This document shows positions 1 through 8,717 of a stretch of DNA of 11,597 nucleotides, piece after piece (the stretch's first letter is position 1; each line of letters opens with the position of its first letter). The DNA is from a virus (Duplodnaviria; Heunggongvirae; Uroviricota; Caudoviricetes), in IMG/VR virus record IMGVR_UViG_638341087_000009, positions 1 to 11,597 of that record; one strand, 5' to 3'. Both the position numbers and the translations under genes were made by a program. The notes beneath the pieces are model-generated. The model saw only the letters and a program-made list of their open reading frames with translations, searched no databases and was not told where the DNA came from.

Positions 1-478
1 ACAGAGAATCCACCCATAACACTGTTTTTGGTTTTAACTGTTCCGCGTGCGCTGAGCCGCATTCACCGCATCACAAAATTCACTTTAAAAAGGGCGGCAG
101 AGCAGCCACGGAGTAAAACTGATACCGCCAAACGTCACCAGAAAATTGATAACAGAGGGCGTTGCAGCGGGGTTGTCACTTAAGCGTATGGTCAACCTGA
201 CAACCCGGTGTCCTCAACGGGGAAGGAATAACCCCGCCATACTTACCGCCGCGCCATTTCGCGGAGTGCCACAACCGGAAGCGCACGGTCGACGAAAATT
301 TAACGACAGGCTATCTATGAACCAGCTACCTCGCCGTGCGCTTTCGCGTTATGGTCTGACTTTTCAGGGAAATATCCTTTCAGTAAACTGTCAGTGCCGG
401 ATGCTCACCCGTGTCCGGCGCACGTACTCCACCTCACCCGTGGAGAACTCCTTAATCACCAACCCTCAGGAGGGTGAA

Positions 479-754
479 ATGTCGACTGAAAATGATGAAA
501 TCATTAACTCCCTGATACGCCAAATTAATAATTTTGATAAAGCATTGCAGCATGCTGCGGCGCGTAGTGATATAACTCTTTTAGCAATTTCATTTCTTGC
601 ATCTGTTATGGATAAAAATGAAGTCGTACGACAGAGTCTTGTTGATTATATCGACTCGCTTCAACCCGGCACTTTCAATCATGAGAGCTTCAATCATGAG
701 AAAGAGCATGTTAAGTCTGTAATTAATTCTCTTATTTTGAATCAAAAGAATTAA
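479..754 (+). CDS. Hypothetical small protein (91 aa), AT-rich insert (moron-like) in the early-left region
   Basis: ATG at 479 preceded by AGGAGGG (466-472, 6-nt spacing). Visibly lower GC than flanks. In-frame 15-bp tandem duplication (674-686 / 689-701, encoding FNHES/FNHEK). The upstream part of the 146..754 track ORF is Arg/Pro-rich, GC-rich and has no SD, so the start was moved to 479. No family recognised. Confidence 0.5.
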   Translation: MSTENDEIINSLIRQINNFDKALQHAAARSDITLLAISFLASVMDKNEVVRQSLVDYIDSLQPGTFNHESFNHEKEHVKSVINSLILNQKN

Positions 755-1052
755 TGCTTTTTGTTGCAAAGTAATTTTCAAGGGGTTCTATTCGAATCCC
801 TTTCTTTTTCATTAACAAGCCAAACCCCTTATCAATGATGTCCATTAGATCCAGGAAGTATTTTTCATGTAAATCCTGGTTATCAGAGAGCTGCTTCTCT
901 TCGTACAGACCGATAAAGGCACGACGCACGTTACCGGATATAGTATCGATGGTTTCTTTTTCTACGGTACTCAGGTCAAGAGTCGCCAGTTGGGAACGAA
1001 CTATATTCGCTGCCATTTCCTGGAATTGCATTGGTAAATCTTTAAATTCCAT
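732..1052 (-). CDS. Hypothetical protein (106 aa), last gene of the leftward early operon
   Basis: ORF with GAGG 6 nt upstream of ATG (complement of 1050-1052). Its 3' end overlaps the 479..754 gene convergently by 23 nt. No family recognised. Confidence 0.5.
   Translation of the reverse strand: MEFKDLPMQFQEMAANIVRSQLATLDLSTVEKETIDTISGNVRRAFIGLYEEKQLSDNQDLHEKYFLDLMDIIDKGFGLLMKKKGIRIEPLENYFATKSINSFDSK
780..809 (+). terminator. Candidate intrinsic terminator downstream of the 479..754 gene
   Basis: Hairpin 782-788 / 794-800 (GGGGTTC / GAATCCC, one G-U pair, 5-nt loop) followed by TTTCTTTTT (801-809). It lies inside the 3' end of the convergent 732..1052 ORF. Confidence 0.35.
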
Positions 1053-1074
1053 TATTAGCCTCGTTGGTTAGCTA

Positions 1075-1293
1075 TTAACGCGGGTATGTAATCATTCTGG
1101 CAATGCTTAATGCCGCTGCTTTTTCCAGATTGGTGATATCCTGCTCCAGAGCGGACAGATTTTCAGCCTGCTTAGCCCTGGCTTCATTAGCCCATTTCAG
1201 ATCCTGCGCTGCATTAATTTTCTGGCGCATCCACTCATAAAGTTCATCATCGGTATAGTCTGGCGAGATGATGACGGGTTCTCGTTTCTGCAT
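1075..1293 (-). CDS. Hypothetical small coiled-coil-like protein (72 aa)
   Basis: ORF with GAGGAA 5 nt upstream of ATG (complement of 1291-1293). Charged, helical-looking sequence; 22-nt gap to the next gene downstream. Confidence 0.55.
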   Translation of the reverse strand: MQKREPVIISPDYTDDELYEWMRQKINAAQDLKWANEARAKQAENLSALEQDITNLEKAAALSIARMITYPR

Positions 1294-1322
1294 ACTGATT
1301 CCTCGCGGTGCTGCTTCGCTTA

Positions 1323-1451
1323 TCAGCCGTTAGATTTTGCCGAGCTGGAAAGCGCCTGTTTAAACTCACTGAAGCTGAGAGCTTCTTCGCCTTCGGCAAG
1401 GCCTTCGAAGTATTCTTCGTAAGCCTTTTCCATGATTGTGTCGAAATCCAT
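1323..1451 (-). CDS. Small acidic protein (42 aa), not in the supplied ORF track
   Basis: Hand translation of the minus strand gives MDFDTIMEKAYEEYFEGLAEGEEALSFSEFKQALSSSAKSNG. AGGTGA lies 6 nt upstream; the start sits 1 nt after the stop of the upstream 80-aa gene. The two listed ORFs covering this interval (1247..1456 -, 1308..1505 +) look like frame shadows. Confidence 0.45.
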   Translation of the reverse strand: MDFDTIMEKAYEEYFEGLAEGEEALSFSEFKQALSSSAKSNG

Positions 1452-1452
1452 A

Positions 1453-1695
1453 TCACTCACCTGAGTTTCTTTCCAGCCAGCGACGGGCACCATTTTCGGT
1501 TTTAAACGTTTTGCTTTTGGTATACGTCATCGCGGTGAATGTGCCGTCCTGGTTGGGAAACACGCCGTACACCAGAGATTCATTGTTGCCAAGATCGATA
1601 GTATCCATGCTGACCTCATTTCCCCTTAACGCCGGGGTAGCGGAACTAAAAAACTGCTGCGCTGTTATATAAAGTGTTCCCGCCGTCATGTTCAT
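1453..1695 (-). CDS. Hypothetical protein (80 aa), first gene of the leftward early operon
   Basis: ORF with GAGGCG 4 nt upstream of ATG; sits about 85 nt downstream of the pL-like promoter. Not Arg-rich, so not obviously N-like. An internal Met would give a 50-aa product. Confidence 0.5.
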   Translation of the reverse strand: MNMTAGTLYITAQQFFSSATPALRGNEVSMDTIDLGNNESLVYGVFPNQDGTFTAMTYTKSKTFKTENGARRWLERNSGE

Positions 1696-1787
1696 ACGCC
1701 TCGGGCTGGCTACTTAACCCCTGACCACTGCCGGGTAACTCGAGGTATTGCCCTGCGTTCTGTGGGGCGGGGTGGGTTGGTGAGCGC

Positions 1788-1817
1788 ATCATAAAACACA
1801 TAAAATGTGTTAGTCAA
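1788..1817 (-). promoter_or_regulatory. pL-like sigma70 promoter for the leftward early operon
   Basis: Minus strand reads TTGACT (complement of 1812-1817), 18-bp spacer, TATGAT (complement of 1788-1793). Read directly from the sequence. Confidence 0.5.
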
Positions 1818-1831
1818 CACAAAAAAAGTGT
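1795..1831. promoter_or_regulatory. Two operator-like palindromes (ACACA-N5-TGTGT type) inside the pL-like promoter
   Basis: Site A 1795-1811 AACACA-TAAAA-TGTGTT, a perfect 17-bp palindrome in the promoter spacer. Site B 1817-1831 ACACA-AAAAA-AGTGT, overlapping the -35. Centres are 21 bp apart (two helical turns). The same motif recurs at 2849-2865. Confidence 0.5.
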
Positions 1832-1840
1832 GCGCAAGAA

Positions 1841-1872
1841 TAAAAAAACTCCCATTCAAGAGGTGATGGGAG
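1841..1872 (-). terminator. Intrinsic terminator ending the repressor/toxin-antitoxin transcript
   Basis: Stem 1849-1855 CTCCCAT / 1866-1872 ATGGGAG, followed on the minus strand by a 7-nt U tract (plus-strand A run 1842-1848). Immediately downstream of the ParE-like stop. Confidence 0.6.
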
Positions 1873-1883
1873 GTGGTTGATTA

Positions 1884-2171
1884 TTAACCGTTACCAGGAT
1901 ATTGCTGACGAGCATGTATCACGCTTACAATTTCAATGCTTGAAGTCGCTACCCTGTATAGGATTATGTAGTTAGGGTGGGTCACAATTTCTCTCAATCC
2001 AGAAACCCGTTCGCTTGGCGGGTATAGATACGGATGCTCAGATAGGGGCAGCACCGATGTTTCAATGCGTATTTTTAGTCTGCGCGCTGCCGGAGGGTTT
2101 TTTTTAGCAATGTAAGTTATAATCTGACTTAAATCATCGCGAGCAGACGGTAACCATAAAACGGGCAGCAT
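1884..2171 (-). CDS. parE: ParE/RelE-family type II toxin (95 aa)
   Basis: MLPVLWLPSARDDLSQIITYIAKKNPPAARR...YIILYRVATSSIEIVSVIHARQ fits the ParE pattern (L.W...A..DL..I..YIA...P.AA ... Y.I.YRV......I..V.HARQ). The start overlaps the upstream antitoxin stop (TAATG). The longer track ORF (136 aa) has an implausible Arg/Lys-rich N-terminal extension. Confidence 0.85.
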   Translation of the reverse strand: MLPVLWLPSARDDLSQIITYIAKKNPPAARRLKIRIETSVLPLSEHPYLYPPSERVSGLREIVTHPNYIILYRVATSSIEIVSVIHARQQYPGNG

Positions 2172-8386: not shown

Positions 8387-8440
8387 TGCTGCGGGCGCTT
8401 GAGGCTGTCTGCCTCGGGCATGCCACCGTAAGGCAGACAG

Positions 8441-8512
8441 AGAAAAGCCCCAGTTAACATTACGCGTCCGGCAAGACGCTTAACATTAATCTGAGGCCAT
8501 ATCTATGCTCTA
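8441..8512 (-). ncRNA. Candidate Sok-like antisense RNA (about 70 nt)
   Basis: Weak minus-strand promoter (TTGCCT, complement of 8543-8548; 17-bp spacer; TAACCT, complement of 8520-8525). Transcript would be antisense to the mok-frame SD and ATG (8493-8507). It would end in a minus-strand hairpin (arms 8491-8497 / 8447-8453, inner stem 8464-8468 / 8475-8479) followed by UUUUCU. Structure-based inference only. Confidence 0.3.
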
Positions 8513-8561
8513 CACACGTAGGTTAGCCTCTTACGTGCCGAAAGGCAAGGAGAAGCAGGCT

Positions 8562-8717
8562 ATGAAGCAGCAAAAGGCGATGCTAATCGCCCTGATCGTC
8601 ATCTGTTTAACCGTCATAGTGACGGCACTGGTAACGAGGAAAGACCTCTGCGAGGTACGAATCCGAACCGGCCAGACGGAGGTCGCTGTCTTCACAGCTT
8701 ACGAACCTGAGGAGTAA
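8562..8717 (+). CDS. hokD: Hok/Gef-family type I toxin (51 aa), closest to HokD/RelF; in-frame Mok-like extension from ATG 8505
   Basis: MKQQKAMLIALIVICLTVIVTALVTRKDLCEVRIRTGQTEVAVFTAYEPEE is the Hok family signature (transmembrane helix plus ...TRK.LCE..IR.G..EVAAF.AYE). AAGGAG (8547-8552) lies 9 nt before ATG 8562. The upstream in-frame ATG 8505 with its own GAGG gives a 70-aa form, as in chromosomal mok genes. Confidence 0.85.
   Translation: MKQQKAMLIALIVICLTVIVTALVTRKDLCEVRIRTGQTEVAVFTAYEPEE

Follow-up and report, generated by a model that had tools for sequence, protein, structure and literature searches.

The early-left region of the viral DNA analysed here (the window, 11,597 nucleotides (nt), considered at its full length) appears from its sequence to be the ydfA–ydfB–ydfC start of a prophage dicBF operon, followed by one extra accessory gene. 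The region as a whole very probably represents the part nearest the promoter of a dicBF-type early-left operon in a Qin/CP-933P-like lambdoid prophage, with predicted repressor control and with products proposed to be non-toxic accessory proteins. The initial annotation had described a leftward early operon of four tightly packed minus-strand genes behind a PL-like promoter, none of them recognizable and one missing from the open reading frame (ORF) track. Our analysis recovers all four ORFs (1453..1695, 80 aa; 1323..1451, 42 aa; 1075..1293, 72 aa; 732..1052, 106 aa), with gaps of 1, 29 and 22 nt between successive genes, and a predicted sigma-70 site with flanking operator-like palindromes upstream of them. 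However, three of the four are named genes of the dicBF operon, ydfA, ydfB and ydfC (PMC5069750), the first gene is shorter than proposed, and the operon does not stop at the fourth gene but extends to the DicF small RNA at 143–92. The features, in the direction of leftward transcription, are as follows.

1842..1872, minus strand: intrinsic terminator of the repressor–paaA2–parE transcript, as read from the sequence (stem CTCCCAT/ATGGGAG, 10-nt loop, run of seven T).
1796..1831, no strand: putative operator-like palindromes ACACA-N5-TGTGT at 1796–1810 and 1817–1831, flanking the promoter.
1788..1817, minus strand: predicted PL-like sigma-70 promoter TTGACT-18-TATGAT (10 of 12 consensus matches, promoter scan).
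1619..1646, minus strand: conserved 28-nt leader element GTTCCGCTACCCCGGCGTTAAGGGGAAA, just 5′ of the ribosome-binding site of the first gene.
1453..1608, minus strand: ydfA (DUF1391), 51 aa (Pfam PF07151, phrog_751, RefSeq 51-aa call, start conservation).
1323..1451, minus strand: ydfB, 42 aa, acidic (pI 4.05, net charge −7.5; RefSeq 'protein YdfB' on 100%-identical DNA; phrog_2061, 1.3e-27).
1075..1293, minus strand: ydfC, 72 aa (RefSeq 'protein YdfC'; phrog_1744, 5.9e-39).
732..1052, minus strand: gene for a 106-aa hypothetical accessory protein (phrog_6937).
479..754, plus strand: gene for a 91-aa ORFan, antisense to the operon, with Shine–Dalgarno sequence (SD) and start AGGAGGGTGAA-ATG, in an indel cassette at about 443–735.
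144..731, minus strand: untranslated early-left transcript leading to DicF and passing antisense through the 91-aa gene, as expected from homology.
92..143, minus strand: DicF sRNA, carrying its own terminator (Rfam RF00039; 75 bits, gathering score 48; E = 1.8e-15).

Window positions 1–2000 match 4606 of 5426 complete Escherichia coli genomes by megablast, with ydfA, ydfB and ydfC annotated beneath the match. At least 80% of the ydfA–ydfC block is found in 2311 of the 5426, some copies being 100% identical, and the block is likewise 100% identical to RefSeq loci annotated ydfA (DUF1391), ydfB and ydfC. As in a dicBF-type operon, the three genes follow one another closely on the same strand in the order ydfA–ydfB–ydfC, and DicF lies downstream on that strand with its terminator (stem 109–94 plus a T run, terminator scan). 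Annotated relatives show the order int–xis–exonuclease–DUF1482–dicB–[dicF]–ydfC–ydfB–ydfA–parE–antitoxin–repressor; the window itself ends 91 nt beyond DicF, where relatives have dicB or a dicB remnant. The exact whole-window mosaic occurs in no complete E. coli genome, the best reaching 81% coverage at 95% identity.

The dicBF operon of the K-12 Qin prophage (ydfA–ydfB–ydfC–dicF–dicB–ydfD–ydfE, with dicBp repressed by DicA) has the same first three genes in the same order and spacing (PMC5069750, PMC10448788), and the YdfA to YdfC proteins here are 95–100% identical to those of a K-12-type genomic locus (L002). In both, DicF is downstream on the same strand and the promoter sits just downstream of the immunity repressor operon. 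Unlike K-12 Qin, the window has an immunity module of repressor, PaaA2 and ParE with other operators, a 5′ leader of about 170 nt rather than about 70 nt, and a cassette of about 590 bp (465–1054) between ydfC and the dicF leader, which holds the 106-aa gene, missing from K-12 Qin, and the antisense 91-aa gene; homology to the K-12 ydfC–dicF spacer resumes at about position 464. CP-933P of E. coli O157:H7 (paaR2–paaA2–parE2) shares the repressor–antitoxin–ParE operon and, after it, a PL-like promoter whose operators are related to the PRM/PR ones, as well as the Cro-like, YdaT-like, O and P genes rightwards. Its operators have a reported consensus of GTTTAGTAA repeats, whereas those here read ACACA-N5-TGTGT, and immunity specificity therefore differs.

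Rac-type early-left regions (ydaF/ydaG, sieB, kilR, recET) of E. coli, Citrobacter, Cronobacter and Salmonella also place DUF1391 and/or YdfB homologues first behind the repressor, with an antisense gene slot next and then kilR or dicB, gam and exonuclease VIII. They differ from the present locus in that the antisense slot is taken by SieB or other genes and DicB is replaced by KilR, and often neither ydfC nor dicF is there. The pL operon of phage lambda (N, ral, sieB, cIII, kil, gam, bet, exo) consists of leftward, repressor-controlled small accessory genes and a division inhibitor, with the recombination genes last. The region here resembles it as a leftward early operon of small accessory genes, with repressor control predicted; unlike in lambda, an N/nut antitermination module is not recognizable, and the four proteins have no homologues among the early-left proteins of lambda.

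The promoter-like site lies downstream of the immunity module, in which the repressor (2391–2789) shares one operon with paaA2–parE, and its position corresponds to those of dicBp in K-12 and PL933P in CP-933P (PMC5069750; PMC8630535), the latter being controlled by PaaR2 and YdaS (PMC8630535). A third ACACA-N5-TGTGT copy is found at 2850–2864 in the divergent repressor/cro region, and the motif has four matches in the whole window against a shuffle mean of 0.34, with 0 of 200 shuffles reaching four. Upstream of ydfA there are thus a promoter-like site and palindromes shared with the repressor region; repression of the corresponding promoters has been shown for K-12 and CP-933P. The terminator at 1842..1872 is absent from the terminator scan because the scan admits loops of at most 8 nt.

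The first gene had been read as 80 aa, but the extent of DUF1391, the RefSeq call and start conservation all indicate 51 aa (1453–1608). The PF07151 match (96.7 bits against a gathering cut-off of 27.3) covers residues 31–78 of the 80-aa ORF, corresponding to the 51-aa protein, and, apart from about 6, the 97 distinct upstream sequences all keep ATG 1608 and its SD (ATGAGGTCAGC-ATG) unchanged or with one base different. Further upstream, the in-frame start varies among relatives (none, −18, −26, −27, −29, −31, −35 or −52 codons), the frame is interrupted by stops at −13 or changed by 1-nt indels that offset each other, and in Qin-type relatives the promoter, about 70 nt upstream, overlaps the would-be extension. 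We accordingly rejected the form reaching 1695 as an over-extension. Variants in ydfA number 23 synonymous to 21 nonsynonymous (pN/pS 0.16, p = 9e-6), and the same counts are found in ydfC (pN/pS 0.29, p = 6e-6), whose ATG lies 29 nt past ydfB with GAGGA 6 nt before it. By variant counts, the synonymous excess is restricted to the annotated frame in ydfA, ydfC, the 106-aa gene and the 91-aa gene.

The ATG of the 106-aa gene lies 22 nt past ydfC, with GAGG 7 nt before it. Its product combines a conserved 'MEFKDLP' N-terminal module (residues 1–53) with a variable C-terminus, and comparison with relatives indicates that the 106-aa copy is the 124-aa form shortened by the inserted antisense cassette. 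The AlphaFold2 (AF2) model is a helical bundle with three main helices (pLDDT 68.8) and has no Foldseek match at E ≤ 0.001 in the PDB or BFVD; the top BFVD match is simply the homologous N-terminal module, and a likeness to AcrIIC4, the top PDB fold match, was discarded as not meaningful (E = 1.1). On the opposite strand, the scans returned a terminator-like hairpin at 780–802 (plus strand). We observe the ydfC–dicF spacer, as far as sequence comparison goes, as a cassette site with orphan genes in both orientations.

In K-12, a polycistronic ydfABC–dicF transcript from dicBp is processed by RNase E/III, and DicA represses the dicBF operon 22-fold. Given the sequence of the window and the K-12 and CP-933P precedents, the immunity repressor would bind the ACACA-N5-TGTGT operators over the PL-like promoter in the lysogen and keep the operon off. 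Derepression would then yield a single leftward transcript for YdfA, YdfB, YdfC and the 106-aa accessory protein, the YdfB start being coupled to the ydfA stop across the 1-nt gap. Processing of the 3′ untranslated part by RNase E/III, shown in K-12, would release DicF here as well, and read-through would reach dicB and the recombination genes, as it does in K-12. In the present variant, the antisense 91-aa gene may hamper transcription running on to DicF.

The 42-aa acidic ORF that the initial annotation had found missing from the ORF track, with an SD and a 1-nt gap, is a real, conserved and RefSeq-annotated gene, ydfB. The ydfA stop TGA (1455–1453) is followed by a single base (1452) and the ydfB ATG (1451–1449), with the SD AGGTGA 5 nt ahead of that ATG, and this junction is preserved in Salmonella and E. 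coli relatives. The gene is absent from the track because the longest ORF in its frame has 56 aa (1323..1493), under a 60-aa cutoff; that maximal form (ATG 1493) was rejected, as translation of the Citrobacter and Cronobacter copies would begin with the 42-aa ATG, which immediately follows the leader there. The AF2 model (pLDDT 85.9) has helices at residues 3–16 and 27–39, a predicted helix-loop-helix. It has zero Foldseek matches in the PDB, a YdfB profile finds nothing significant among PDB sequences, and a metagenome scan with the YdfB alignment returned near-identical E. coli copies only. We rejected an EF-hand assignment: the PDB profile E-value of about 0.5–0.7 is non-significant, none of 21 family members has a Pfam EF-hand, and position 1 would be Leu18, not Asp. 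On this view YdfB is a genuine protein, whose small acidic helix-loop-helix has a conserved acidic loop and an aromatic core (Y11, Y14, F15, F27, F30), and we speculate that it most likely acts by binding a protein partner.

It is very unlikely that the ydfB frame is untranslated and owes its conservation to mRNA constraint (ydfA–ydfC spacing or stability) or to recent common ancestry. Such a reading could draw on E. coli variants, which, each counted once, number 9 synonymous to 27 nonsynonymous (p = 0.22), indistinguishable from neutral; on frameshifting indels in 5 of 191 full-length copies, the other 186 being intact; on YdfB peptide evidence not having been found in the searchable literature; and on a second frame that is likewise open in 24 of 25 alleles, so that openness alone is no proof of coding. 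From the 9:27 count and the five frameshifted copies, constraint on YdfB appears weak or relaxed across many of the prophages, which are often cryptic. Conservation of the 42-aa frame in related prophages, on which the initial annotation had staked its claim, nevertheless holds across genera: the comparison gives 19.2 synonymous changes over 45.5 sites against 29.8 nonsynonymous over 206.5 (Fisher p = 7.5e-5), whereas other frames are not significant. Pairwise pN/pS is 0.29 in the ydfB frame, compared with 1.26 and 0.86 for the two alternative frames, the overlapping 69-aa ORF at 1247..1456 being dismissed as non-coding at 1.26, and four of five common variants alter a third codon position without changing the amino acid. 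Four genera keep the start, stop and length, the Citrobacter, Cronobacter and Salmonella ORFs all having exactly 42 codons. In the first two of these, ydfB stands without ydfA as the first gene after the leader and has an SD of its own. The core motif is 60–75% identical among relatives, including stand-alone 29-aa forms in Enterobacter. The confident predicted fold also argues for translation.

Homology searches, which had been suggested for each protein together with structure prediction, supplied named families for genes 1–3 but no function-revealing relative, and the models of YdfB and the 106-aa protein gave no fold match: searches of Pfam, NCBIfam, PHROGs and PADLOC yielded nothing beyond DUF1391 and PHROGs of unknown function, the PADLOC candidates AbiEi (0.009) and BrxA (0.014) being at chance level, and PDB sequence searches with YdfA, YdfC and the 106-aa and 91-aa proteins returned nothing significant. 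The original suggestion, an 80-aa first gene and four unrecognizable proteins for host takeover (division inhibitors of the Kil type or modulators of recombination), is very unlikely. Lambda and Rac do carry kil-type genes further downstream of the same post-PL position, and in other genera these operons include KilR, Lambda_Kil and Gam genes; in related operons the Lambda_Kil, KilR and DicB models do match other genes. Yet none of the four proteins matches Lambda_Kil (PF06301), KilR (PF27398) or DicB (PF05358) at E ≤ 0.01, all are soluble and acidic with no membrane segment by hydropathy, the 80-aa extension is unconserved, and the genes are named and widespread. Moreover, growth and morphology in K-12 stay normal when the operon is induced in a strain that has lost dicF and dicB but retains ydfABC (PMC5069750), a result that concerns ydfABC. 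We propose, by analogy, that the four are soluble, acidic, non-toxic accessory proteins and that the division-inhibitor role belongs to DicF and DicB. Slightly more doubtful still is that YdfA, YdfB and YdfC regulate their own transcript (DicF-terminator read-through or RNase processing) and, together with the leader element, do the job of N/nut. In these prophages the N position lacks an N gene, a terminator lies within the operon at DicF (PMC5069750), and the leader element is retained behind differing promoter types and before differing first genes (ydfA, ydfB, ydfC, others). But that element is present with or without ydfA, covariation gave no support for a possible leader hairpin, the leader fold is no more stable than shuffles (z = +1.06), and the proteins show no arginine-rich motif and no N-protein homology. 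Less improbable, but still quite unlikely, is that the 106-aa gene, instead of being an ordinary operon member, works as a pair with the convergent 91-aa gene, whether as a lysogen-expressed exclusion factor with an induced partner or as something toxin/antitoxin-like. The two genes overlap by 23 nt at their 3′ ends and both are under purifying selection (106-aa gene, pN/pS 0.31, p = 2.4e-5; 91-aa gene, pN/pS 0.13, 9 synonymous to 4 nonsynonymous variants, p = 2e-4). MEFKDLP proteins (106 to 212 aa) that differ in their C-termini are accompanied by different antisense genes (91, 73, 92, 77 aa and others) that share one SD, and SieB holds the same antisense slot in Citrobacter Rac-like prophages. 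Against this, plain physical linkage could explain the pairing, the 124-aa form stands without any antisense gene at 13 or more loci, the promoter scan gave no convincing promoter for the 91-aa gene, and PADLOC and Pfam returned no match. The 91-aa protein does not match SieB (PF14163) and, unlike SieB, has no membrane segment (highest 19-aa hydropathy window 1.43), sharing only its position.

With the region read as the start of a dicBF operon, the operon and the missing ORF are already known, and the finding is real but ordinary because the overlooked 42-codon gene is the known YdfB. Its main value is one of clean-up: the missing ORF already stands in the K-12 and RefSeq annotation, the dicBF operon is well studied, and a small-ORF-aware or homology-aware track would have flagged ydfB. 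A bolder proposal, which we consider unlikely, is that the ydfC–dicF slot is a hypervariable two-gene site for an exclusion or defence factor and an induction-time partner and, separately, that YdfB represents a conserved family of 29-residue acidic helix-loop-helix peptides targeting a host protein; if true, the antisense slot genes would be a lysogen-expressed exclusion or defence class outside current defence catalogues. By-products of the analysis are comparative support from four genera for YdfB as a genuine gene, a corrected ydfA start and the cassette site in the ydfC–dicF spacer. The present window gives no special handle on function, and any ydfA, ydfB or ydfC phenotype would be new.

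The early-left region of the window contains all four minus-strand ORFs that the initial annotation placed between 732 and 1695. Between the stop codon of gene 1 (TGA, 1455–1453) and the ATG that opens the 42-codon ORF at 1451 lies a single base, the 1-nt gap that had been described. By sequence reading, genes 2 and 3 are spaced by 29 nt with GAGGA preceding the gene 3 ATG, and genes 3 and 4 by 22 nt with GAGG preceding the gene 4 ATG. The 42-aa frame extends to an ORF of at most 56 aa, so it was missed by the 60-aa ORF track, as had been noted. None of the four products had been considered recognizable, but the first 2 kb of the window match 4606 of 5426 complete E. coli genomes, with ydfA (DUF1391 family protein), ydfB (protein YdfB), ydfC (protein YdfC) and two hypothetical proteins annotated under the match. 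The ydfA–ydfC block is present over at least 80% of its length in 2311 genomes of this set (several 100% identical), and family matches comprise Pfam DUF1391 (96.7 bits) and PHROGs 751, 2061 and 1744. Together with the DicF small RNA, these annotations and matches identify the region, at the level of sequence, as the promoter-proximal half of the dicBF operon.

Features of the window
143–92, minus strand, as the operon: DicF small RNA (Rfam 75 bits against a gathering score of 48), with its own terminator
479–754, plus strand: p91, a 91-aa ORF with a strong Shine–Dalgarno sequence (SD), AGGAGGGTGAA-ATG, carried by a cassette at about 443–735
732–1052, minus strand: MEFKDLP-module protein (gene 4, the 106-aa p106); others at related loci L005, L037, L149, L183, L193, L210 and L254
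780–802: terminator-like hairpin inside gene 4, accompanying p91
1619–1646, minus strand: 28-nt leader element GTTCCGCTACCCCGGCGTTAAGGGGAAA, immediately preceding the operon's first gene
1817–1788: promoter-like site TTGACT-18-TATGAT, after the intrinsic terminator
1842–1872: intrinsic terminator (sequence reading), after the repressor, PaaA2 and ParE genes
2391–2789: cI-like HTH repressor, upstream of the operon
Upstream of the operon, beside the repressor: PaaA2 antitoxin (PF21217) and ParE toxin (PF05016), from Pfam
8393–8567, plus strand: hok/sok-type type I toxin–antitoxin locus (Rfam sok, 114 bits)

Of known systems, the nearest is the dicBF operon of Qin, the K-12 cryptic prophage. Compared with Qin, the immunity module here is of the PaaR2/PaaA2/ParE type, like that of CP-933P, the leader is longer, and a two-gene cassette is inserted between ydfC and dicF. 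In annotated relatives, the leftward order continues with dicB, DUF1482, exonuclease, xis and int; the window stops short of dicB, which may be disrupted or displaced in the present prophage lineage. No exact mosaic of the whole window was found in the complete E. coli genomes searched, the best reaching 81% coverage at 95% identity. At the left edge, a GTG-start ORF leaves the window (1–22, minus strand); its STEC388 counterpart is annotated as an incomplete DicB pseudogene. The hok/sok-type locus comes with a 70-aa ORF (8505–8717), and hokD is annotated at the corresponding position in a relative.

The promoter-like site carries two ACACA-N5-TGTGT palindromes (1796–1810 and 1817–1831), with a third in the divergent repressor/cro region (2850–2864); the motif has four matches in the whole window, a count reached in 0 of 200 shuffles. 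For the present immunity type, the three palindromes are candidate operators, distinct from the consensus of CP-933P. Given this site and its palindromes, the proposed ‘pL-like promoter’ is a fair description, and it parallels dicBp of K-12 and PL933P of CP-933P. On the minus strand at 1884–2789, the immunity repressor is co-oriented with the PaaA2-type antitoxin and ParE toxin, the three-gene arrangement of CP-933P in O157:H7. The match to the closest early-left regions ends at about 1781, the predicted transcription start, a position that marks a module boundary between immunity region and operon. The leader element is kept across promoter and immunity types and across first genes (ydfA, ydfB, ydfC and others), including in Citrobacter and Cronobacter; a possible CCCC/GGGG hairpin within it was set aside for want of covariation.

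Gene 1 had been read as 80 aa, a length that we revise to 51 aa on start conservation, the extent of DUF1391 (residues 31–78 alone of the 80-aa ORF) and the RefSeq ydfA (51 aa). We compared 97 distinct sequences upstream of the gene at related loci; apart from about six divergent ones, all keep the ATG at 1608 and its SD (ATGAGGTCAGC) intact or with a single base changed. In-frame starts further upstream are either absent or scattered at −18, −26, −27, −29, −31, −35 or −52 codons, stops interrupt the frame at −13 codons, and the alignment of the supposed extension has 1-nt indels that offset each other. In Qin-type relatives, the −35/−10 hexamers lie about 70 nt upstream of the ydfA ATG, inside that extension; on these features the 80-aa form is rejected.

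Whether the 42-aa frame is coding had been made to depend on its conservation in related prophages, and there it is conserved. Among E. coli-type loci, the ORF is intact in 186 of 191 full-length copies (indels in five), pairwise pN/pS is 0.29 against 1.26 and 0.86 in the remaining two frames, and of the five common variants, four change a third position synonymously. When each variant is instead counted a single time, the ratio is 9 synonymous to 27 nonsynonymous and does not depart from neutrality (P = 0.22), in contrast to ydfA, ydfC, p106 and p91 (P = 6 × 10⁻⁶ to 2 × 10⁻⁴), and another of the frames likewise stays open in 24 of 25 alleles; the within-species coding signal is therefore weak. 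Other genera supply the decisive evidence: homologues of exactly 42 codons occupy the same early-left place in Citrobacter, Cronobacter and Salmonella prophages. Across genera, two independent pairs differ at 19.2 of 45.5 synonymous and 29.8 of 206.5 nonsynonymous sites (Fisher P = 7.5 × 10⁻⁵), against 0.71 and 0.89 for the alternative frames. In Citrobacter and Cronobacter, ydfB is the first gene after the conserved leader and is preceded by an SD of its own; ydfA is absent, and this arrangement fixes the 42-aa start. Searching exhaustively without a profile returned 48 clusters, which share a conserved M7–S35 core (invariant M7, Y11, E12, Y14, F15, E20, S26, E29, F30 and S35). On this conservation, YdfB is a genuine small protein of acidic character (pI 4.05, net charge −7.5). 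Stand-alone 29-aa ORFs from outside the window (P0248, P0262, P0270 and P0272) match this core exactly, one cluster member coming from Enterobacter sp. BIDMC87.

Homology and structure prediction, the route first proposed, yielded names and families for ydfA–ydfC and a YdfB model; for p106, no significant fold match was found in PDB or BFVD. Hits in PADLOC were at chance level. The AlphaFold2 model of YdfB from its family alignment is a confident helix-loop-helix (pLDDT 85.9; helices 3–16 and 27–39); an EF-hand resemblance was tried and rejected. Our best guess, held with low confidence, is a protein-binding acidic helical hairpin. The earlier ‘Kil-like’ proposal does not fit the four proteins: Kil, KilR and DicB models match none of them but do match other genes of related operons, no membrane segments were detected in them, and the K-12 operon induced without dicF and dicB but with ydfABC leaves growth uninhibited and morphology unchanged (PMC5069750).

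The protein p106 belongs to phrog_6937, and its N-terminal 53–66 residues also match four further PHROGs; the 235 relatives in databases all carry the label ‘hypothetical’, and almost all come from Escherichia. Alignment reveals one fixed N-terminal module (MEFKDLP...ISGNVRRAFIGLYEEK) with differing C-termini, in forms of 106/109/124, 121, 133, 135, 186, 201 and 212 aa across the related loci examined, and these proteins are a modular family without annotation. At least six mutually unrelated C-termini follow the module (residues 1–53) in different prophages, including Salmonella, for protein lengths of 106 to 212 aa. The protein commonly has 124 aa; in the window, the last 18–19 codons of this form are replaced because the p91 cassette is inserted exactly at the end of the gene; K-12 lacks gene 4, with ydfC joined straight to the equivalent of about 464. 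The AlphaFold2 model is a helical bundle of three main helices at moderate confidence (pLDDT 68.8).

Antisense to the operon, the 3′ end of the ORFan p91 overlaps that of the 106-aa gene by 23 nt. RefSeq annotates p91 as hypothetical, and it has just 15 database clusters. Its variants (pN/pS 0.13; 9 synonymous to 4 nonsynonymous, P = 2 × 10⁻⁴) show purifying selection. The cassette is an indel relative to other prophages, some of which carry unrelated small genes behind the same SD in this slot; in Citrobacter Rac-like prophages it is occupied by SieB.

In K-12, DicA represses dicBp 22-fold, and a polycistronic ydfABC-dicF transcript is cut by RNase E/III, yielding DicF. With the same parts here, derepression of the promoter at 1788–1817 would give a single leftward transcript encoding YdfA, YdfB (coupled to the ydfA stop), YdfC and the 106-aa protein, with DicF carried in its 3′ portion. 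As first described, the observation was not new, since the 42-aa ORF had already been annotated as YdfB; what novelty is left belongs to the orphan cassette, which falls outside that observation or on its edge.
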